This document shows positions 23,343-52,686 of a stretch of DNA of 64,000 bases, one piece after another; position 1 is the stretch's first letter; the number at the start of each line of letters is the position of its first letter. The stretch is taken from the NCBI GenBank assembly GCA_951406725.2, contig OX597819.1, forward strand, positions 97,960,001 to 98,024,000, given 5' to 3'. This DNA comes from Octopus vulgaris (Eukaryota). The translations under genes and the position numbers were made by a program. Under the pieces are notes generated by a model. It did no database searches, was not told the DNA's origin, and was given only the letters and a program-made list of their open reading frames with translations.

Positions 23343-24650
23343 TTGTGTGTCTGTGTTTGTTCCCCCAACATCGCTTGACAACCGATGCTAGTGTGTTTAC
23401 GTCCCCGTAACTTAGCGGTTCGGTAAAAGAGACCGATAGAATAAGTACTAGACTTGCAAAGAATAAGTCCTGGGGTCGATTTGCTCGACTAAAGGCAGTG
23501 CTTCAGCATGGCCGCAGTCAAATGGCTGAAACAAGTAAAAGAGTAAAAGAGTAGGACAGCTGACGTCTGTGATGGTACACACTTGACGGATGTTTTGATG
23601 GAAATGTTTCACCAGTATTATTTCTGCTGTTGTTTGTGTCTGTATTCGATAATGAGTGGATTCTCTGTATTGATTGCAGGACAGTCTCTTTTTTTCTTTT
23701 CTGAATGGCATTGTATAGTACTTTTGCGACAACGTCGTGTCGCATAGGGAAGTAGTACCTTGATAACAATTTTGACAAGCAGCTAATCACAACTGAGACG
23801 TCTTCCACAGAAATATGACATAATCTACATTTTCGGTTTCATCTTGGAACACCAAGGGCTTCACTGTCTCTTTTGTTGAATAGGTATTTCGTAGCCATAT
23901 TCTGTTCTTGTGTTGCAAATGCACAGCATTAGAAGTTTGGTGAGATGCTGCGGTCACGAGTCCAAGAGAGGTTTCGCTTCATATCAGTATTACTCTCTTC
24001 TTCTAGGACGGTGAGGTGGCAGAACTGTTAGCACGCCAGGTATAATGCTTAGCGGCATTTCGTCCGTCTGTACGTTCTGAGTTCAAATTCCCCCAAGGGT
24101 GACTTTGCCTGTCATCCTTTTGGGGTTAATAAAATAAGTACCAGTTGAACACTGAGTGGGGGAGTCGATGTCATTCACTTACCCCTCCCCAGAATTTCTG
24201 GCCTTTGCCAAGATTTGAAACTAATATTACTTCCTTCTTCAAGCCTTTGGGAAACATACCAATGCATGTCCTTTTTTGATATGCTGAACATTTCACAAGG
24301 TCTTCTTTGAGGTATGTTAGTCCGGCTGTTTTGGGGTTGGATGGGAGGTCATCAGGAAGAGATTGTTTCCTGAGGAGCTCGCTGCCAACACTTAGGATAT
24401 TGTTCTCTTCACTTTTCAGTACTAATTTGATGTATTTATTTTTGCTGATGTTGTTTAGAAAGTGTTGTCTATGAGAGATTATATGACAATCGAAGGCTGT
24501 CTGCACTGATCTCAATCCTCTACCTCCTTTATCTCTTCTTAGGTAGAACTTGTCGATATCCCTATTTCTGTAGATGCTTCCATTTGATGTTAGTAACTTG
24601 CAGGTTTTAATGTCTATGGGGTAGATTTCGTCTACAAACCAGTCAAATAT
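22850..24650 (-). mobile_element. R4/Dong-like LINE fragment (RT C-terminus, CCHC knuckle, RLE) interrupted by two SINEs
   Basis: Motifs DKFYLRRDKGGRGL, ATQEQNMATKY, KCRLC..VEDVS..ISC...RHDVVAK and YKFTFIPIIIGAQG. Confidence 0.8.
23111..23553 (+). mobile_element. SINE family A, full length, inserted in the R4-like LINE
   Basis: Head, internal microsatellite and (aaaagagt)n tail are all present. Confidence 0.9.
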
Positions 24651-34683: not shown

Positions 34684-34904
34684 TACTCTTAGCTAGAAGA
34701 GAGTGTGTCAAACTGGAACAACAGTTATGTCGATCTCACCTCGTGTTTCGATCGCTACCCACCCAATATAGGTCTGATGGATCAAGGTAGACCCAGAGCT
34801 AAACAACAACAGCAATAACACTTGCTATCAAAATTTATACGCCACTCTTAACTACAGTGTTAGTTTTTTTTTTTTTTTTATTTAAGTAGGCTGGCAAATA
34901 GTGT

Positions 34905-35375
34905 ATAAAGCCTTGAAACTCTACTCTCTCCAGCGCCGCCGCGAGCGGTACATCATTTGTACGATGTGGAGAATATACCGCCAACTTTGCCCAAACGACC
35001 TGAACATTAGTTTCAAGGTTCATCCAAGGCTGGGACCACAGGCCATACGTCCCCTGCCCAATTCAGGATCACAGTATATAGGTACACTGCAACATAACTT
35101 CTTTTCCTTAACAGGCTCTGCCCTGTTTAACATTGTCCCGAAAGAGATCAAAGAGGAAAAGGATCCCATCAACTTTAAACATAGTCTGGACAGATTTCTT
35201 CAAGGAATACCGGATAAGCTACCCATACCTGGATACAACTCACTCAACAAGAACTCACTACTTGAATGGACCATAAACAAAACTTGACTTAAACAGGATT
35301 TCGATAATCCTATCAGGTAGTGCAATTAAGTTAGACATGGCCTGGACCAAACTTTGGTCGAAACATATTTAAGTT
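34905..35375 (+). mobile_element. CR1-group LINE 3' end (ORF2 C-terminus plus 3' UTR)
   Basis: KALKLYSLQRRRERY...LFNIVPKEI...FKHSLDRFLQGIPD...NSLLEW, followed by a short 3' UTR stem-loop and a microsatellite. Confidence 0.8.
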
Positions 35376-36984: not shown

Positions 36985-36989
<5 letters not shown>

Positions 36990-37729
36990 GTGTGACCAAT
37001 AAGTATCCAGACTATTGTCATAGTAACGAAGCCTCTTGGCATAGAATGACCTTGAACTCTGCTGTGCAGAGTTTTAACGTTCTAGCTCACGTCCACTGTT
37101 TACAACAGTGCTTGGAAGGAAGGTGTGAAGCGTATGATCATTGCATTGACCATGACAGAGAAAGTTGTCATGGCGATATCTGCTCAGAAGCCTATGCAAG
37201 GTTGCAGAAATTATATGGAGAAGGGTGTATGAGCGGCACACATGTGTACGGGTGGTACAGACGTTTCCAAGATGGCCGAAAAAGTTTCGATATTGACAAA
37301 ACGCTCTTGGAGACCCGCAACAAGCAGAACTGCGGAAAACATCGCAGCTGTGTGGGGAAATCGTCGAATCACCATCCCTGAGTTATCAGAGGATTTGCAG
37401 ATTAGTTACGATTCAGTTCTGTCCATTATCACTGAAGATTCGGGTATGAGACGCGTGTCTGCCAAGTTTGTAACTAAACTGCTTTCAGCTGACCAAAAAG
37501 ACACGCGGGTTTCAGTTGCACAAGATCTTCTTGATTGTGTCGAGAACGATGAAAACTTTTTGAAAACTTTGCGTAAGCCTCTAAGCAGGTATCGCCAAGC
37601 TTTTGGCAAAATTTGATGCAGATTCTCAGCTCAACTTTCTCTGTCATGATTAATGCGACGATCACACGCTTCACACCTTACTTCCAGACACTGCTGTAAA
37701 CAGCGGATGTGAGCTAGAACGTTAAAACT
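36985..37729 (+). mobile_element. Mariner-derived element with N-terminal transposase, whose 3' end is replaced by an inverted copy of the 5' end
   Basis: LQKLYGEGCMSGTHVYGWYRRFQDGR..RPATSRT..NRRITI..GMRRVSAKFVTKLL on +. The inverted [18 protein letters not shown] is on -. 37070-37167 pairs with 37632-37729. Confidence 0.85.
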
Positions 37730-37997: not shown

Positions 37998-38053
37998 ATA
38001 TATATATATATATATATACATATACATACAAACATACATACATCTATATATGT

Positions 38054-38112
<59 letters not shown>

Positions 38113-38475
38113 GCGTGGTTGTAAAATGCATGCACCCCAACCACATGCTTCCGTGTTAAGTCACGCTGCATGTCACCTTGCTCATGTGTCTTCTGCTATA
38201 GCCTAGGGCCGACCAAAGCATTGTGAGTAGATTTGATAGACAGAAACTGAAGGCAGTCCATCACATACGTGTGTGTCTCTCTGAACCTGTGTTTGTCCCC
38301 ACTACCGCTGGATAACCGATATTGGTAAGTTTACGTTCCTGTAAGTTAGCGGTTCACCAAAGATATCGATAAAATAAGTACCAGGTTATAAAGAAGAATA
38401 ATAAGCACTAAATCCTTCAATAAGACGGAGCCATGTGGTTGGAAAGCAAAATTCTTACCACACAGATATGCTTGA

Positions 38476-38522
<47 letters not shown>

Positions 38523-38777
38523 AGATATATACTGACACACATACACATATATATGTGTGTGAGCGTCGTTAGCCTGTGTTTGGCAATATATTTGGAGCAT
38601 TGCTATTTATCCGGTTCCCCTTCGTGTCGCTAACCCTTACTTTTCATATAAGGGACATCTTGTATCTTATTGTATACATGTTCGATGGTACGAAGCCAGG
38701 AAGCGACTCGTTGACATGTGATATGAGAGCAGCATGAACGATTTTCTGAGATGCACAACTGTAATCTGATAACGCGA

Positions 38778-38809
<32 letters not shown>

Positions 38810-39149
38810 GGCGAGTTTCTGTCTCTGTCAATGAAATCCATTCACATGCTCTGGAACTATAGCTGAAAGCATTTGTCCAAGAGAGCAGTGGGACTGTACC
38901 GAAAGCAACCTAGTTGGGGAGTGAAATTCTGAACAATACACTCTCACATATATATCTGACATGTACTTTTTTCGCAAGTGCGTTGGTGTCAAATTGTTGA
39001 CAACTGAAAAATCTAGAAAGTCCTTTAAAACATCTCATATATCAGTACAGTAATTTTATTTTGTGGTAGTGCGTCACACAATGACTTCTAGACAAATTTC
39101 ACTGTACTTCCAATACTTTGTAACTGCATCTATATATCTTCTCTTTCTA

Positions 39150-39456
39150 TTTGAATTAAGTTCTTTCTCTGAGGAAAGTGATTGTTTCTAACAGCGATAG
39201 AAACATCGTTGGGATGTAGATAATGAAAACGATGTCAATTTTGAACTTGAGAAAATTCTTGCATACTTTTATTGTTCCACTTACAAATTGTATTTTTAAT
39301 GTGCAAGTTAGTTGGCTGATTTCTTTTCCTCAAAATCTAAGTTTATCCAGATTAACAGTTGGGCATTTACTCACAAAATCAAGTGCACCAGTTACGATTG
39401 CTGTAAATGTACATTTCTAACCTCGATAAAGAAGCTGGCAGTTTCGAGGCAGTTGT
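39150..39456 (-). mobile_element. Short 3' fragment of an R4/Dong-like LINE
   Basis: Homologous to 22860-23070 (encodes GTIKVCKNFLKF). The 5' junction falls directly on (TATG)n at about 39456. Confidence 0.7.
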
Positions 39457-39863
39457 ATGTATGTATGTATGTATGTATGTATGTATGTATGTATGTATGT
39501 ATGTATGTATGTATGTATGTATGTATGCATGTATGCATGCATGCATGTATGTATGTACGTATGTATGTATGTATGTATGTATGTATGTATGTATGTATTC
39601 GTACTCATCTACATACGCTCGTGAGCATATATATTTGAGTATTTACATAGCATATTGATCGGTCACTGTGGCGCAGAATCAGAAATGATTCGAGGAACTA
39701 AAAGAGAAGGGCTGCACAGAAAGCAGGAGTCTTACCATGTCCTGGTTTTACAGCTACATGCTCCACTATAGTCATGGATTTTGTATGCTAATATTGGCCT
39801 AGTAAGCAACCTCAGGATACTCAAAGAGTAAATCTGCTACAAAGAAGGACGAATGTCATGTGT

Positions 39864-39944
<81 letters not shown>

Positions 39945-40269
39945 CGTGTGTGTGTGTGTGTATGCATGTCCGTTCGAACGGACAGCCATGATACAGTGGC
40001 TACGAACATTACTTGTTAGTTCAACTACTGCGTTGATATCTTAGAGATATTTTAGAACTAGCATTATTGCAAAATCAGAGACTGTATGTCGTTTGAAATC
40101 ATATTTTTTGTGAGCAGAAGCGAACTACTGCCATCTCTACCAGACTCGTCTTTACATGTGTTATTGTGTTTGATTTCGCTCCTATGTAAGTTATTGTTTT
40201 ATCACGTGAATTACTGAATTGTTGACTATTGTGATTATTTGTGTTTCTGAAAATTTTATTTGTCATCCC

Positions 40270-41180
40270 CATTTATGGGTGAAGCTGTGAAGAACGGTAT
40301 TATGAATACACAAGTACTAACAGGCAGTTATGCTGCGGTGACGGGCAAAAGTCTGTCAGCGAAGCTACTGCAGATACGTGAATTGTCAAAGGGACTTCAA
40401 GAAGTATAACACCTTATTGAAGGAGGAGGGAGAATGTCTAAGGCTGACACCCCCGAAAGAAGTGACTGAGAGTGCAGAAAGGAAAACCATCACGTATAGA
40501 ACTTGAATATAGCAACAAAGAAGGTGGAGATAGCAGCCGTAGAAGCGGTCGAGGAATGCTTAAAAGAGATAAAGGAGATAACTACGTTCTACACCAGAGG
40601 ACGAAAGTTCGGGGCGGTGGAGGTAGGCTTCAATCAATGAGAACGAAGCTAAGAAATACTCCACCGTAGCCTTGAAATCGGCGGAATGGGCACTGTTACC
40701 TACTTACTGTGGTAAGCGTGCGGCCAGAGTAAGGATAGGGAGAGTGCCTCCTGAAATTGACGAGGCGTGGCTTGTGGTAGCCATCCTCTACAATACAGAA
40801 GAAATGTCGAAGACTGCGGAGGTGAATTAGTGGGGATATGGGATAGAGGTAATGGTACATATCAGCTTACCAGACCTCCATAAGATTGTTGAAGAGCTCG
40901 TTTTACCAGACGAAACCATACTGAGAATTATAGTGTAAGGTAGACCTCCAATATGTTTTGCAAGTGGAATAAGGGATCACATGAAAGCCAAGTGTCCCCA
41001 GAAACACGAAAAGGAGGAGGCGGAGAAGGAGAGTTGGGAAGAAGACATTGTAACGACAGAGGAGGAAAAGGAGTTTACAGTGGTAGAAAGGAAGAGAAAA
41101 AACAGCGAATCTCTACCAAAAAAGAAAAGGAAGGAAGAAGAAAATAAGAACGAAAAAAGAAATATATTCACCTCTGGATG
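40270..41180 (+). mobile_element. Decayed LINE ORF1 (L1/Tx1-like) with zinc-knuckle remnant
   Basis: LLPTYCGKRAARVRIGRVPPEIDEAWL and IIV*GRPPICFASGIRDHMKAKCP (CX2CX4HX4C-like), followed by a charged tail. Stops are present. Confidence 0.55.
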
Positions 41181-43605
41181 GGACACTGGTCCGTCGCAGG
41201 AATACTCATGTTTGCTAGCAGAGTAAGCTGGAGCAATATGAAATGAAGTGTTTTGAACACAACGTATTTCCCGGCCCAGAAATCGAAACTATAATCTTAC
41301 GATGTTACTATCGATGCACGTTCGAACTAAGGAGCAAGCTATTCACAGCGTTTTGTCACGGAAAATATATCTCGCTTGTTGACAAATGGTGTGTAAACGC
41401 CAAGATCAGCTCACAGCACTATCTACCAAGACTGTAAGACTAGCATTTCGGAGTAGTTATCTTCTCATCGGTCACAGACACTAAGCAGACGACACTGCGG
41501 ACTGCACGATGACTGGCAGCGGTATACGGCGGCTCACCGTAAGTAAATTACGGAGGAAGAGCGCTAAGCAGTGATAAGTGAATTTGCAATGTCATTATCA
41601 GTCCGAATACGCTCGATGCATGTTCGAACTAGGGAACAAGCTACTCACTGCGCTTTATCACGGAGAATATACCTCGATCATAAGTTCAATAACCTCACCT
41701 CTAAGCCACGATCTTAGACATATATAGAATAAAATAATAACAAAAAAATGCACACACTCGCACACACTCACATGTAGACGTGCATATAAGCACATACACA
41801 CATGCATACACACGTTTACACATACATATAAGCATACACATGCACGCACACATGTATATATGCATGTAAGCCCATAGACACACGCACACGCACGCACACG
41901 CACACACACACACACATAACATAGAGTTCTCAGGTGTAATTCTAGAAAACTAGGACTAAAAAAAAGACTCAGTACATGAAAGAATAATTTGGCATCAATA
42001 AATGCTTGAGAGTTGTAGAAATTGTTTCAACACGACATACTTTCATGCATACATGCATACATGCATTCATATATATACATGCATGCATGCATTCATATAT
42101 ATATGATTACATGAACATTTTACTGATATTTAGCAGAAGTAACAGAGTGACTCAAGGTCTAAGAGTTTTGTATGTTGGCACTTATCAAACCAGTCACAGG
42201 TCGAAGGCCTGTGGGTTTATATAGTTGTTGATAAATTTCCCTCCGGATTGTATGAATACATGCATGCATTCTTGTATACGTAGGTACAAACCTCCATACA
42301 TATAATCAAACATACATGAAAATATATGAAATGAAGGGACGTGGGGGAGGGACATGAAGACATGACAGCAATAAAGAGAGAAAATAAATTATATATAAAA
42401 CAACATCAAATATAAATCCATTTAACAATTAGCTTTCCTCGCAGAAGGCATGCCTGAGTATCCCCTCCTCAATATATTTCTCAGTTATCTATGTACTAAC
42501 AAAGGCTGGTAAAAATATTTGGTTGATGAGGTTTAATAACCCTGAAATATGACCGCAATTGCCCTCACAAAGACCAGGTTTATCTCACAATTCTATTGTT
42601 TATCGAACCTTATTTTTAATTAATTCAAATTCCCTTGTTATATCCCCTGCTCCTTCTAACTAAAACCATAAAATTTGGTGATAAGGAGAGCTAATTAATT
42701 AACTATTTTTGGCTAACTACTGTATGTTAGGACATACTTAGTGCTATATATAACCTTTTTGTACATATGTGTGTAAATGCGTATCCTATTTATATACGCT
42801 AAGAGTTAGCCTATTTCCGTATTTGAAGTCACGTATGTTTGTTTATGTACACATTGTCTAAATAGAATGGTGTATATATTATTTATAAAATGGTAATAAT
42901 GAACAATAACAACAACCATAAGCTTCTTAATGGCAAACGCTCATAACAGCTGTTCTCATGTTTGTATCGTTCCACTACAATAGATTATACACACACACAC
43001 ACACACAGATACACACACACGCACACACATGCACACACACACATACACACACATGCACGCACTCCGAGAGAGAGAGAGAGAGAGAGTTACACATGCATAC
43101 ACATTCACACGCATACAGTCAGATATGCGCACACATAACGTACATATGCTTATATATATATATACACACACACACCAGCAATGGACGTCGTACTAACACG
43201 TGGCTTAAATTGTAATATTTAGAATAGAATGACACAGCTACTGGAGTAATTACGTGTGAGTGATAGGAGGAGGAGTAAAATGTGTTTGCAAAAGGGAGAG
43301 TGAGTAGGAGAGGGAAAGGTGTGTATGAGAGTGGAAGAGGGAGTGTGAGAGCGAGAAGCAACGAGAGATGTGAGAGGGAGAAATCCTGTGTGCATATGGA
43401 GTGTAGAGGCTTATGTATGTATGTATGTATGTATGTATGTATGTATGTATGTTTGTATGTATGTATGCATGTATATATGTTTGTTTTTGTTTGTAGGCGG
43501 AGTTAATGATTCATTGAAATTGATATGAAAGTATATAGGGGAGGATATTTGTGTGTGTGTGTGTGCGTGTGTACACACACATATATATATAAGTATGTGT
43601 CTGTG

Positions 43606-43660
<55 letters not shown>

Positions 43661-43943
43661 GTATGCATGTATGTATATGAATATGTATATCTATCTAATC
43701 TGATATCTCTCTCTCTTTCTCTCTCTCTCTCATATATATATATATGAGTAATTGAATGAATTATCTTATTAAGGATAATTCGTAAGATAACCGATACCTG
43801 GGTAGCAAATTCACATCAGAAATAACACGGTTGAAGATACGTCCCTAAGGCATAGACTACGTGTCTTCGTGCGGAAATTTGTATGTTTACTTTAAAATTA
43901 TAAGCATATGAAAGAATGGAGTTGAACGACTAGTTAACAAATA

Positions 43944-44040
43944 TCCTTTATTCTCGACATATGTTTCGAAGGCTGCATATTCCTAATTCCGAAGGAATAA
44001 GGAGTACATTATGCAGATTTCTCATCAGGAAAATCAAGGA
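43944..44040 (-). ncRNA. Type I hammerhead ribozyme with intact core, in the left arm of a palindrome
   Basis: The minus strand reads tccttgattttc-CTGATGA-G(long stem II)C-GAAAC-atat-GTC-gagaataaagga. Stem I is 12 bp with 1 mismatch and 1 G-U pair. Stem III is palindromic (ACATATGT), as in minimal PLE hammerheads. Confidence 0.8.
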
Positions 44041-44115
44041 ACTTATGTCGACATCAAAATGCACAAAAAACTTTTAGCTGACCGCTCTCAAGGAGCCCAT
44101 GATGTCGACATAAGT

Positions 44116-44212
44116 TCCTTGATTTTACTGATGAGAAATCTGCATAATGTACTCCTTATTCCTTTGGAATTAGGAATATGCAGCCTTCGAAACATATGTC
44201 GAGAATAAAGGA
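44116..44212 (+). ncRNA. Type I hammerhead ribozyme in the right arm of the palindrome
   Basis: CTGATGAG at 44128-44135, GAAAC at 44189-44193, GTC triplet at 44198-44200. Stem I pairs 44116-44127 with 44201-44212; the pair next to the core is an A-G mismatch. Confidence 0.75.
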
Positions 44213-44246
44213 TATTTGTTAACTAGTCGTTCAACTCCATTCTTTC

Positions 44247-44317
<71 letters not shown>

Positions 44318-44378
44318 ATGTATGTATGTATATATATATATATATGTATATGTATATCTATATATATATGTGTGTGTG

Positions 44379-44438
<60 letters not shown>

Positions 44439-44813
44439 ATTAAACCAAATTAGCACTACGTAAGGCATCAAGGGAAGCAAGGGGCACTACAGAAATAGTA
44501 AATGGTTTACGGCACAAAAGACATCACTCTAAACTTGCTAAAACAATATTCGGAATGCCTTATCTCTTCTAAGTATAGGTGCTAATGTGTTACCTAAGAT
44601 TGATTTTGAGGATGCGATCAAAGACTTAACAATTCAAAAAAGTAGGAGGTAACTTTTCTAATATCAAAAAAGTGGAAGTACTCAAAAATAAACATTATTT
44701 TTACCTCTTCCTGTTTTGTTTCGTTTTGAAAAATTAAAAAGTTTTATATACTGAATGACATAATCTTTCACTGGGGCACCAAAATCTTTTAAGGGCATCG
44801 GTGGGTCTTAATG

Positions 44814-44862
<49 letters not shown>

Positions 44863-45089
44863 AATAGTAAAAGGTATACAGAAGGCTTGAAGGTTCTATA
44901 TATTTGGTCAATATGTCTGAAGAATATAAAGTTTTTTCTTACAATGACATAGTTTAGAAGAAATGACCGGTTTCGCGTTCAGATATATGAAAGTATACAA
45001 CTTGTATTTCGCTAACTTTTCATCTCCACAACGGCATTAGTGTGTTGAATGCAAGTGTTTGTGTCTTTTATCTGTTTATAAACATACAC

Positions 45090-45163
<74 letters not shown>

Positions 45164-45793
45164 GCACACACATATACATATATTTCGTTTCTGGATTTGG
45201 TTTGCTAGATTCTTTATGTGAGTTCGTGTGTTGAAGCATATTTTGTTCAGTTAAGATAAATAGGTAAATGGATATGAATGTAAACAGACAGACATAGAGA
45301 AAGCTAGGTAGATAGGTAATATGAACAGACAAGCACACATACCCACATACATACAAACGTATACACATATATACATATATATATATATATGCATACATAT
45401 ACACACACATACATGTATACACACACATGCATGCATCCATCTATCCATCCATACATACATATGTGTATGTGCACGCACACTGAACCACATACATGCGCAC
45501 AAGCAAACAAAATGAACGTAGCTCGGATAATGGACAGAGTCAACGACTATTGAAAAGGTTGCAAAACGCAACGGAAATTTTAGAAAAGATAAAGTAAATG
45601 AGTGGAAATCAGACCGATGAATGTGTTAAATGACAAGGCACAAAAAGAGAATGACTCTCCCCACACACAACAATATGTATATATATATTATTATAATAAT
45701 ATATATGACATACATAAAGAATGAATAATAATAATAATATGACAACAAAAGAATGAACGAGACCTCGATATTATGTAAATAGAAGAATTTATC

Positions 45794-46230
45794 TATAATA
45801 TAATATGTAACAATTAGTCGGTTGCCTTAAAATAAACTCAGAGTTTCGGATATCGGAGGTGGAAGTCTGCTCCGGCATCTCGTAAGTTATTAAGACAAAC
45901 AAAAATGCTATGAAAATGACCGTTAAATAAAGGGAGATTGCTATGAAGATTACCGTTATTAAGACAAACAAAAGAACTATGAGAATGACCGTTATGTGTA
46001 TGTATGTATGTACATGCGCGCATACGCAGATTCTATGAGCGTGGGTTTACCTTCTTCGATTATTTTTACTTTCTCCCTATTCATGTAATTTCCCTTTATT
46101 TAACGGTCATTTTCATAGCATTTTTGTTTGTCTTAATAAGTGATGAGATGCCGGAGCAGACTTCCGCCTCGACATCCGACACTCTGAGTTTCATTATAGC
46201 AACCGACTAATTACCACATATTATATTATA
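45794..46230. repeat. About 145-bp-arm diverged inverted repeat with degenerate hammerhead cores
   Basis: Arms are 45794-45939 and 46087-46230. The minus arm reads CTTACGAG...CGAAACTCTGAGTT and the plus arm reads GTGATGAG...CGACACTCTGAGTT. Confidence 0.85.
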
Positions 46231-46326
46231 TTATATTATATTATATTATATTATATATTATACAGCGGTGGTGCCCCAGCATGACCGCGGCCTTCGGGCT
46301 AAAACACTTTTAAGGATTTAAGGATT

Positions 46327-46491
<165 letters not shown>

Positions 46492-46974
46492 CAGATATGC
46501 GAGCGAGCATGCGTGTATGTAGTATGTATGTGTTTGTTTTGGGTTTTGTTTACTCCAGTTTCGGTTACATCTAGCAAAACTCCTTATTACTTAGCTTCCT
46601 ACTCACACAAAGCGCCTCCACACTTCCACATTTCGACCGTAGGCTCCCCATGTGCATATAGGCCACATGTGCAACAATCATCTATCATGATAACTTTACA
46701 TAATCACCCGAACTTTTAGAGGTAGAAGCTATATTTCCCTCAAATCACACTACTGGTTTTAGATAGAGGAAGGACACAGTGAAAAATATAGAGAAGATGA
46801 TGTTGATATGCTCAATATAGCCAGCATGATAACTTTGATTAATCATTGACCAGAAAAAACGACAGGGTGGTCACCGTTGGGATACTTCCAATCCTAGCTC
46901 TACTGAGTCAAGACTAACTTAGAACTAAATAACAATAATAACTACAAATACTTCTGCTCAGCATGGCGACCAGT

Positions 46975-47060
46975 TTCTTTTTCGACTCTGTAAACTCTGG
47001 TGTGCCACAAGGTTCGACTATGTCACCTGTATTCTTTCTTCTTAAACTACTCATACTCAT
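46975..47060 (+). mobile_element. LINE reverse-transcriptase fragment
   Basis: Encodes NSGVPQGSTMSPVFF (GVPQGS RT motif). Confidence 0.5.
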
Positions 47061-48199
47061 ATACAGACAATACCGGCCTTCTTTACTCTCTTAACCTTTT
47101 GTCAAAATACGTCACCCATACAAAATATAGCTATCTCTATGATAGATCTACACTGCTACTCTGAGCGGATGCTGCGAAAATATTATCCCTTAAAAGAATC
47201 ATTCCATAATGGACTTACATCTTTAGAAACAATATTGTCCCTCACCCTCACTATAGAACAACTACACAAAACTCATGTTGTTGTCGTTGTTGTTGTTGTT
47301 GTTGCTATGGTTGAGTTTCAGCTGAGCAAACATGCCCAAAGGTACCTCATTTATGCTCATTCTGTTTGTTTTTTAGACGGGTTGTATTTAGGGTTACATA
47401 ATTAAATCTATCCTTCAGTTTCTGGTGTTTATCTTTAAGCTAGTAGGGTGTACTTTGAGGGCAATTTCGCTGCTATTTCTAGTAAATGTTGGGATCAAGT
47501 AAAGGCATCCTTGTTGGTTCAACCCTCGCTTTCACTACTTGGGGAACCCAGAGTAGACAAAATTATGATCAAAGTTCATGTCGTAAACATGTCTTTTTTA
47601 AAAAGGTAGAGTGTGAGTTGCAAGAGATTTAGCTACTGCTTCTAGTAGATCGTATAGTCACATTGAAGCATCCTCATGGATTCATTACCAAGGTAATCTA
47701 GTACCTATCTTGTTCACCAGTTTGGTGAAGCCGTGCAGAATAGACTGTACCATCAAGAAACCTAACAAAACAATTGAAATCGACCAACAGTGTGCGCTAC
47801 ATTGACTCAAAAAATACAGTCTCTTTATAGAGAACGATGGAGATAATCCTTTCTACTGTAGGCACAAGGCCTGGTATCTTTGGGGAACGAGCCAGTTGAT
47901 TACATCGATCCCAGTGCTTAACTGGTACTTATTTTATTGACCCCAAAAGGATAAAAGGCAAAGTCGACCTCGGCAGAATTTAAACTCAGAAGGTAAAGAT
48001 AAGACGGATTGCCGCTAAGCATTTTGTTCAGCATGGTAGCAATTCTGCGAGATCAGACTTACAATGTCTTAGATAATGAGATACCGAATGCAGTGTGTGT
48101 AGGTGGGGTGGGGAAGTAAGACGGGATGGTTACATATGGACCGGAACACTGAGACCCCAAAATAGCTGATATAAAAAGGTTAGAGGGTTCCCAAGTTTG

Positions 48200-48560
48200 A
48201 TGTTATCGAAGAATTAGTTGGTCGGACATAAAGAGAAACCAATATGTGTTGGCATAAACTGAAATTGAATGAAGCCTTGTAAAAAAATGTTGAACCAGCA
48301 AAAACTTGAACATTTTGGGAAATGTCATTAGAGCAAAAGGTCTTCAAAAATTGGCAGGGCGCAAGAACGGTACTGGGGAAAAGATCAAGAAAAGGATGCA
48401 GATAAAACTGGATTGATAGCATTATGGAAATGGCAGAGTTGAAAAATGTAGCACTGCAGAAAACACATGATGAATGGAGAATAATTATTGTCTGAGGAGG
48501 CAGCTGCGGATAATGGTGATGATTATCATTTGAACCGTTTTTGATCATTGGTTTATGATC
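48200..48560 (+). mobile_element. Decayed RTE-clade LINE 3' end
   Basis: Fragment resembling G...GKR.RGR...W.D.I (TVLGKRSRKGCR*NWIDSI...EWRI). Confidence 0.5.
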
Positions 48561-49558
48561 TATCAGACACGAGGCAATAAAACAGCTGCAGTCGATTTGA
48601 TCTCATGACACACGACCAATTAGTGCAATACCTTTAACTTCACAAACATCTTGTCTTCTGTAGACATGTCTTGGAGTAAATTATTACAACAGGTTGGCGA
48701 TGTGTGACACCAGATGGCAGTAGCTGGTTTAGTTCCGCATGGAATACAGGGGAAACTTTCACTTAATGTATTTTTGATTATCGCTTTTCCATTACATAAT
48801 TATAGCTCCTTTATTAGAATTTTGTTGACGACTTCAAGCTACGACAAACAATGAGAGGCACGTGACAGAGTTTTAATTATAATAGTAAATAATAATGACT
48901 TATTTAATTATGTCTTCATAAAGAAATATATACAGATATCTAAATGTTTCAGCTTCAGTTACATACATAATATAAATACATATACGTATGAGAGTGTGTG
49001 TGTATGTATGTATGTATGTATGTATGTATGTATGTATGTATGTATGTATGTATGTATGTATGTATGGATGGATGGATGGATGGATAGATGGATGTATACA
49101 CACACACACATACACACATATACACTCACGCATTTGCATACGGGAACGACAGCATGAACATCATCATTATCAGCAACAACATTAAAAGTAATTGTTGAAC
49201 TTAAGTAGAATAAAATTTGTGAAATACCGGATGCTTATTTTAACGGAACAACAGAATTGTTTGGTCTGGTTCCATAAGCATATGAATGAAGTATACTTCT
49301 ATGTGTGTGTGTACATACACATATGCATACATACATATATCTCTGCGTATACACATATGTATATAAACACATAAACACACATACACGTATATAGACACAC
49401 ATTCATACCTATATATACATTCAGGTATATAATATACATGTATGTGTGTTTATATGTATATATGTTCGTAACGTACGTATGTGTGATGTGGGTGTGTATA
49501 TGTGTGTATTGGTATATATGTGAGTGAATATGAAAGTGTGTGTGTGTATGAATATGTA

Positions 49559-49622
<64 letters not shown>

Positions 49623-49634
49623 TCTAAATATGTA

Positions 49635-50527
49635 CAGGGTGCGATGAATAAACTGTTCTCTAAATTACGCAAAATTGAAAATAGTACTGACATCTCAGTT
49701 TAAGGTATATTTACCAAAATTACATAATTTACATAAAAATATCTTGAAATACTAAAGAGTAAATTTATTCAATAAAATTGCCATTGGTTTCAACCAGGGT
49801 CTCCAGACCACTTCAGAAGCTTCTGTAACTCTTCTGGCCGGTCTCCTTGTTTAAGTTGGTGAATGCTGCCATAATCCTTGCTTTCAGTTCATCTTTGGTC
49901 TAACAGGGAGTTTTGTTGGTTTCTCGCTCAACTGCGCCGCACACATAATAACCAGGGTGTTTGCAGTCTGGGGAGTTAGGTGGCCAGAGCCAGATGTTAG
50001 GGTAATGTGGTCGTAGAAATTATATCTGACAGCCATGACTGGATTCTTCTGCTTGTGTGGCATGGTGCAGAGTCCTGTTACCAGGTATTAGGTCTTCCAG
50101 CAGCTACCCTCTTCATCCAGATCAGCACTACCGCCTCCAGGTACTTGATGTAGGCCTCCGTGCTGAGTGTGAGGTGGTGTGGGAAGATGAATGAAGGCAT
50201 AACATCACCATCACTAGTGATTACTCCAAACACCATGATGTTGACTAGATATTTGATTTTTTTCACTCTCGGTACATGTTCTCATATTGACAGCGGCCAA
50301 ACACGCTGAAATGTTGGTATAGGGGCTTTCAGAGTGAATGCCAAGCAGTACAGCATATCGTTTCCAAATTTCTAGCAGAGTGAAGAATTGCGTCATGGTA
50401 CCGTTTTTCTCTCAGACGGTGGCCAACTGACCCTACTATACTGTGCAGTCAATAAAATCCAAAGCGAACAATACGCATACGCGAAATTAAAAATATCAAA
50501 TGGCGACAATTTATCCACCGCACCCTG
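49635..50527 (-). mobile_element. Internally deleted Tc1/mariner transposon (DD37D/maT-like)
   Basis: TIRs CAGGGTGCG..G.ATAAA with TA at both ends. Motifs MVFGVITSDG, QDSAPCHTS and WPPNSPDC. Confidence 0.85.
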
Positions 50528-51871: not shown

Positions 51872-52686
51872 CAGGGTGGTTGAAAAGTAAGTAGGGATTA
51901 AAAATTGGTAATAAAATTCATATTCCTTTTACAAATTTATTGTAACAAATATGTCTTTATTATATGGGAAAATGAAATTAAAAACGGCTAGGGAGGGAAT
52001 GAACATCCTTCTGAAGGACGTCGTCTGGGATATCTTTGAGAACCTCCTGAATCCGTGTCTCCAAGTCTTCCAGAATGCGAGGTTTTGCTTTGTACACCTC
52101 CTCTTTTGTGTAACCTCACATGTAAAAATCACACGGAGTGAGATCTGGATTTCTTGGAGTTCTGGACTTCTGAAGTTACAGTCTTCAGGTTTTAGCTCCT
52201 TCATGTGATGGGGTTTCCACAGATGAAAATTCACTTCTTTATGCAACATCGTGCGTATTGTGTGTCTTGTTCGTCCACTTTCATGAGCTGCTTGACGTCT
52301 TGATTTTTACCGGCTGCATTGTTGCCACGTTCTCCTCTGATCGGGATGTGGTTGGACGGCCACTTCTTGCATTGTTCACAGAGCTCGTGATCATCAGCTT
52401 TGTATGACAACTTTCTATTGCCTCCGGTCGTAGTGTTACATGCATATCTTTCAATCATACCACCATCTCTGAACGAAAACAATGGAATTCCACGTTCCAT
52501 AGCGTGCTGCCCCTGAACAGTCAAGCGACCGTCCATCGAGAAAATACGAAATAAGATATAAGACAATAAGAAAATATGAAATCAACATTAGTGTTGTCCG
52601 TTTAAAAAATGTTTTTCTTATGACCTCAGTGATATTAAAAATTCTATAAGCAATTTCTAATGCCTAGTTACTGTCCACCAACCCTG
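51872..52686 (-). mobile_element. Internally deleted Tc1/mariner transposon (rosa/DD41D-like)
   Basis: Degenerate CAGGGT.G.TG TIRs. Fragments VQRWW, WKPHHMKELKPEDC and SPDLTPCDF..GYTKEEVYK.KPRILEDLETRI. Confidence 0.7.

Follow-up and report, generated by a model that had tools for sequence, protein, structure and literature searches.

Dual hammerheads encoded on opposite strands, 100–700 bp apart, have been reported in PLEs (PMC4209133), PLEs in general show a truncated copy in inverted orientation, with the tail at one end (PMC8557442, PMC3846280), and the Hydra element Penelope-13_HM is listed with a hammerhead on both strands (File S2, PMC8557442). Hydra-clade, C-terminal EN+ PLEs (Craig et al. 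2021, PMC8557442; e.g., Hydra-1_Obim and Penelope-13_HM) are described with DKT and RW motifs, a (TA)n target, a C-terminal GIY-YIG region that lacks CCHH and has CxxC and CxH around E and N, a sense type I hammerhead near the 3' end, and an inverted 5'-truncated copy. The PLE dimer hammerheads of Cervera and De la Pena (2014, PMC4209133) combine the core boxes with a G10.1-C11.1 pair, a palindromic helix III, a helix II of 6–8 bp, and a stem I of 2–5 bp. For the Poseidon PLE of the anole, studied in vitro, the protein cuts and extends both strands of an AT-rich target, two internal reverse-transcription start sites define the tail, uncleaved RNA is the main substrate, and the insertion ends downstream of the hammerhead cut (PMC11167929). 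In the plant element PLE-X1_sMoe from Selaginella, which is endonuclease-less and rDNA-targeting, the stem II region of the PLE hammerhead is ~53 nt long and is flagged as non-canonical in its source (File S2, PMC8557442).

The locus described here belongs to an octopus family that shares with the Hydra clade each of the features listed above, but has RWL in place of RWK and an Asn-rich linker, CxCX5C not being seen. The family differs from Hydra-1_Obim, its N-terminus and hammerhead being unlike by eye. The stem II region measures 53–59 nt in the octopus family compared with 10–24 nt in 25 Hydra families (File S2, PMC8557442), more than twice any length in that published table, and the tail is ~155 nt compared with 30–40 nt published for the Hydra clade (PMC8557442). 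The core boxes, the G10.1-C11.1 pair and the palindromic helix III are those of the dimer hammerheads of PMC4209133, whereas helix II is replaced by a multi-segment 54-nt arm and stem I spans 11–12 positions. The family appears to follow Poseidon in its two internal start sites defining the tail, its AT-rich target, the cutting and extension of both strands, and insertion ends downstream of the cut; it is of a different clade, however, with start sites ~155 nt apart rather than adjacent, and with an ATG ~260 nt downstream of the cut rather than a hammerhead overlapping the start codon (PMC11167929). PLE-X1_sMoe is different in sequence and gives a precedent for a long stem II. Relative to the published record, the new elements are the long stem II and the long tail, and not the palindrome. 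A literature search for long-stem-II or octopus hammerheads, with most subscription papers outside its scope, returned nothing on point.

The insert and its parent element

The window (the whole 64-kb stretch of octopus DNA analysed) contains the predicted inverted repeat of 151 nt, with arms at 43906-44056 and 44100-44250 that are 99% complementary and flank a spacer of 43 nt. The arms differ at exactly two positions, 44127 (A vs C) and 44165 (T vs C), and the whole palindrome folds at -267.7 kcal/mol (z -38.6, folding computation). The insert exceeds the palindrome, spanning 43746-44250 with the left copy extending to 43746, and (TA)n is present on both sides. Its features are as follows.

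43732..43745, no strand: (TA)n target, left flank
43746..44101, minus strand: 5'-truncated left copy of the element 3' end, from ~-146 to +210 relative to the predicted cleavage site, stopping at the long 3' end of the family
43746..43905, minus strand: single-copy tail of ~155 nt separating the short end (+52 to +57) from the long end (+208 to +213), continuing into the ORF start in tandem copies
43758..43781, minus strand: hairpin of 8-9 bp ending 10-15 nt before the long end, with the stem kept and the loop varied in four subfamilies
43944..44040, minus strand: type I hammerhead, family-typical, with C2.1-G1.1 intact; predicted cleavage between 43956 and 43955
44100..44101, no strand: 2-nt microhomology (TG) at the inversion junction, from comparison with uninverted copies
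44100..44250, plus strand: inverted truncated right copy, from ~-101 to +50 relative to the predicted cut, stopping at the short 3' end of the family and followed by (TA)n
44116..44212, plus strand: type I hammerhead with two changes compared with the left arm, 44127 breaking the core-adjacent pair and 44165 lying in the tip loop; predicted cleavage after 44200
44135..44188, plus strand: extended stem II of 54 nt, with base helix, internal loops, and a tip hairpin with a 3-nt loop; mirrored at 43968-44021 on the minus strand
44192..44199, plus strand: self-complementary stem III, an 8-nt palindrome and predicted dimerisation site; mirrored at 43957-43964
44251..44302, no strand: (TA)n target, right flank

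Each arm has the CUGANGA, GAAA and NUH boxes arranged around three helices, as in a type I hammerhead. On the plus strand, the right arm consists of the stem I 5' strand (44116-44127), CUGAUGA (44128-44134), the stem II region (44135-44188, 54 nt), GAAA (44189-44192), the palindrome ACAUAUGU (44192-44199), C17 (44200), and the stem I 3' strand (44201-44212); the left arm, on the minus strand, is its mirror, with C17 at 43956. The labels C17 and C2.1-G1.1 follow general hammerhead numbering. Single-arm folds gave z-scores of -2.4 to -3.2. A stable cUUCGg tetraloop at the tip of stem II was considered and rejected, the stem register giving a 3-nt loop. Stem I does span the 12 positions originally predicted, but is not fully paired: the left arm has one G.A mismatch, and in the right arm the closing pair beside the core is also broken (A.G), so that A occupies position 2.1; C-G is retained there in 57 of 60 related sequences. 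A Rfam scan of 38000-50000 returned 94 matches at E ≤ 1, none to a hammerhead family and all of miRNA type under gathering scores, so that the Rfam check proposed with the prediction gave no match and the hammerhead call is founded on motif, folding and covariation. That Rfam gave no match probably reflects the long stem II. The type I hammerhead predicted for each arm is borne out on those three grounds, as is the palindromic stem III suited to dimer cleavage, present as ACAUAUGU in the right arm and mirrored in the left.

To place the arm in the genome (2.8 Gb, 227 contigs), 40 of 1,401 candidates were scored, giving 49 matches at 96–100%, and one 24-mer of the arm was found in 764 exact copies, compared with 0 for the control. 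The arm is thus a young high-copy repeat, in agreement with the recent insertion that had been proposed. Longer copies extend upstream into an ORF with an IRWLAFF N-terminus, SDKTRN, RT motifs (FDI..FYPS, YRDD, and FLDV in ORF pieces), a linker rich in Asn, and, at the C-terminus, a YIG region that reads YIG...CxxC..E..N..CxH with CCHH absent (P0002); the RT and YIG parts share one frame or, where the ORF is broken, lie in neighbouring frames. The hammerhead is sense to the ORF and lies ~560 nt past its stop codon; tandem copies run from hammerhead to tail and then to the ORF start ~260 nt downstream of the cut, partial tandems (pLTR) read through into the ORF in two loci (L064 and L026), and several ORF-bearing copies have an inverted copy on the 5' side. 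The family unit, including the Asn-rich linker, is ~3.5 kb. The original prediction of a PLE terminal-repeat hammerhead, for which copy number and parent were to be sought, is thereby matched by an ORF with RT and GIY-YIG upstream of the hammerhead.

By motif, the parent reads as an EN+ PLE with RT and C-terminal GIY-YIG in a single ORF. The DKT motif of the Hydra clade is present (SDKTRN), the RW motif occurs as an RWL variant (IRWLAFF) of RWK, and nearly all 3' ends listed run into (TA)n; the CxCX5C linker of the clade was not seen in L029 or P0002, which have an Asn-rich linker in its place. The family therefore appears Hydra-like, with this one departure. A Pfam search of the parent proteins gave no family above cut-off and a PDB sequence search no significant match, so the assignment to the clade relies on a visual comparison of motifs with PMC8557442 and not on a tree. 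A metagenome search with the endonuclease region gave 84 pattern matches, none of them confirmed. Two other assignments were rejected: the Naiad clade, with an N-terminal endonuclease, DKA and no canonical hammerhead, compared with a C-terminal endonuclease, DKT and a hammerhead here; and a non-LTR retrozyme with head-to-tail hammerhead monomers, as the copies here face each other head-to-head and derive from an element that has an ORF. The inverted PLE end of the prediction thus corresponds to two head-to-head truncated 3'-end copies of a Hydra-clade PLE.

Several further observations concern the family and the surroundings of the insert. L064 (G000:C1:91763000-91772999) is a near-complete unit with a direct pLTR, a broken ORF, a 3' pLTR, and an inverted copy of ~2.8 kb. 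L062 and L063 (G000:C20), 70 kb apart, agree in their breaks and junctions, which points either to a segmental duplication or to a haplotype that the assembly contains twice. An Asn-rich insert lies between RT and endonuclease, without the CxCX5C linker, in L029:100-520 and L067; Asn-rich inserts are known in rotifer PLEs (PMC3846280). Parts of the window stretch were found in 20 of 24 rows from sequencing runs, all as contigs and none listed as RNA, and these came from four organisms, so that the family occurs under more than one species label. Within the window, 44440-45060 in the right flank is another high-copy repeat, and ORF fragments at 24171-24650, 34886-35287, 36989-37616, and 51929-52306 resemble, on visual inspection, remnants of LINE and mariner-type transposons.

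Two 3' ends and the origin of the palindrome

The head-to-head layout recurs throughout the genome. Among the first 100 listed of the 764 copies, 20 of 78 clusters contain a head-to-head pair, 14 of them within 300 nt; the pair at the window locus is spaced by 227 nt, and the genome-wide 200–230 nt spacing class comprises 94 head-to-head palindromes compared with 1 tail-to-tail. Older subfamilies show the same layout with diverged arms. The palindrome is the routine insertion product of the family and, as cited above, its layout is already published, so that a special status for the arrangement is not supported; taken alone, the locus is unremarkable debris of a retrotransposon.

Among the copies, 3' ends form two clusters, +52 to +79 and +208 to +220, the upper figures being inflated by alignment into (TA)n, and the two ends are ~155 nt apart family-wide. 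Palindromes were compared in 19 rows representing 18 distinct loci (L084 and L085 being one locus), and 17 of the 18 combine one long and one short arm with the tail on one arm only, L009 being short plus short. Of 30 copies that include the ORF start, not one has its beginning at the cleavage site, and 5' ends at that site were accordingly rejected; since both 3' ends also lie downstream of the cut, the template appears to have been uncleaved or re-ligated. The hairpin before the long end is a candidate start signal for reverse transcription, and a conserved hairpin before the short end was rejected after 63 sequences gave no consensus fold.

We consider it very probable that the palindrome represents two truncated, head-to-head, hammerhead-bearing 3' ends of a Hydra-clade PLE in (TA)n, likely from one abortive insertion and likely inert as a ribozyme at this locus. 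Directly observed are the parent element with its two fixed 3' ends, the combination of a long with a short arm, the head-to-head orientation of the copies, and a microhomology of 2 nt at the junction; from the end statistics we infer a two-priming route. The protein of the element would nick both strands of the (TA)n target, and reverse transcription would be primed once per target strand from the free end, with element RNA that is uncleaved (or re-ligated) as template, in one case at the +210 site and in the other at the +55 site; both copies would terminate early, and repair would join them via the microhomology. For these structures, a published and viable alternative is self-priming on an antisense template (PMC3846280), and the single short-plus-short palindrome among the 18 counts against two primings. 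A literature search for twin priming in PLEs, with most subscription papers outside its scope, returned nothing on point.

Transcripts, divergence and assembly of the palindrome

In the original prediction, self-cleavage would compete with a duplex that could be an ADAR or Dicer substrate; read as a regulatory device, this would have a host read-through transcript split between the two fates. A near-perfect 150-bp duplex is indeed predicted, long duplexes are the usual substrates of both enzymes, and some contigs containing sequence of the family come from runs presumed to be RNA. However, the head-to-head orientation of the arms means that the antisense arm precedes the ribozyme in either direction of read-through, and no sense partner for a dimer is present in cis. 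When prefixes of the plus strand were folded, 99 of 101 right-arm bases were already paired to the left arm in the minimum-energy structure once the cut site existed, this being equilibrium modelling and not kinetics, and the duplex is ~10x more stable than the ribozyme fold. The read-through transcript would thus be predicted to zip into the 150-bp duplex before the second arm folds as a ribozyme. In co-folds of two left-arm molecules, the dimeric hammerhead is the minimum-energy state (-58.0 compared with 2 x -25.3), and in co-folds of two right-arm molecules it is not. A competition between cleavage and duplex is made unlikely by the leading antisense arm, the lack of a sense partner in cis, and the core-adjacent mismatch of the right arm, and the predicted contest is not supported. 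The arms also decay at ~1% per copy, like the remainder of the insert, and no long host coding exon is evident across the 64-kb window. We therefore regard a regulatory device at this locus as very improbable.

Equally improbable is that the palindrome was made after insertion, by fold-back repair or local inverted duplication, or that its arms have been kept alike by gene conversion, as had been suggested. The window locus taken by itself leans in that direction, with 2 arm differences in 302 bases compared with 6 private changes in ~200 single-copy bases (Fisher p 0.065). However, the short end of the family is where the second arm terminates, both here and in 17 of 18 loci, and host repair would not choose that position. 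Pooled over the 18 loci, there are 56 arm differences in 2,958 shared positions, or 0.95% per copy, compared with 3 rare changes common to both arms (0.10%) and 62 rare changes in 4,416 positions of the single-copy parts (1.4%). Solo copies show an equally lower rate in the hammerhead region, 0.69% rare changes compared with ~1.5% in neighbouring element sequence, a difference partly due to picking copies by likeness of that region. Gene conversion is thus not supported, because the arms diverge independently.

An assembly artefact arising from fold-back of reads is least probable of all: palindromes between microsatellites are hard to assemble, and the four runs compared with 43600-44400 yielded family-level contigs only, with no public contig bridging the junction, but the arms have two differences, the junction is asymmetric with a 43-nt spacer, the ends are the two biological ends of the family, and older subfamilies repeat the layout with diverged arms.

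The long stem II and an alternative fold

The unusual features belong to the family and not to the locus, namely a covarying long stem II, a tail of ~155 nt, and a possible alternative fold that hides the core. A long-stem-II hammerhead pattern, defined by 30–60 nt between the hammerhead boxes, gave 3,526 genome matches compared with 4 in the control, and in 99 of the 100 matches listed the region between the boxes was 53–59 nt. From these 100, 60 regions were picked to span the subfamilies, yielding 69 hammerheads, 59 of which were aligned with the two window arms (alignment A1), 10 truncated or redundant ones being omitted. The core boxes are invariant in A1 because the search pattern required them. 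The hammerhead structure pairs 81.3% of 2008 cells, compared with 36–48% in slid controls, and double changes were found in stem I (column pairs 17-99 and 14-102), the base of stem II (30-81 and 33-78), and its tip (51-69). Of four change measures tested by shuffling, two did not exceed the control (102 and 313 of 500). The eight subfamily labels are heuristic, only three being single clades, and the changes amount to few independent events. Stems I and II therefore covary among genomic copies, with the reservation of few events and of a rival fold that scores equally; the predicted, unusually long stem II is real in its pairing over the 54-nt region, with double changes in base and tip.

The rival is the free RNAalifold consensus of A1, which is a swapped fold and not the hammerhead: the 5' strands of stems I and II pair with each other, as do their 3' strands (columns 12-17 with 26-31, and 83-87 with 96-100), giving two hairpins that hide both core boxes. 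It pairs 86.3% of cells. Its column pair 14-29 shows 16 double changes and forms in 56 of 60 rows and in 8/8 subfamilies, compared with 6/8 for 14-102 and 5/8 for 29-82. The swapped fold lies 0–5 kcal/mol from the constrained active monomer, with an ensemble probability of 0.70 in subfamily B and 0.00–0.09 in the other subfamilies. Because the swap largely follows from both stems opening with similar letters, it is a lead and not a result. On this modelling, it is conceivable, though unlikely, that the hammerhead of this lineage is a switchable ribozyme, in which the swapped fold would keep the RNA uncut as a reverse-transcription template until it is switched on by a second copy or by the element's own protein docked on the extended stem II.

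Control of cleavage by the long arm or by the swapped fold, if real, would explain why a PLE hammerhead needed protein in vitro, and if the switch reading is true, the ~3,500 natural variants would make the purpose of PLE hammerheads directly testable. The hundreds of palindromes of the family may also give rise to long double-stranded RNA through which the element would be silenced. Its thousands of young, datable copies give the family some value for reading the mechanism of PLE insertion.
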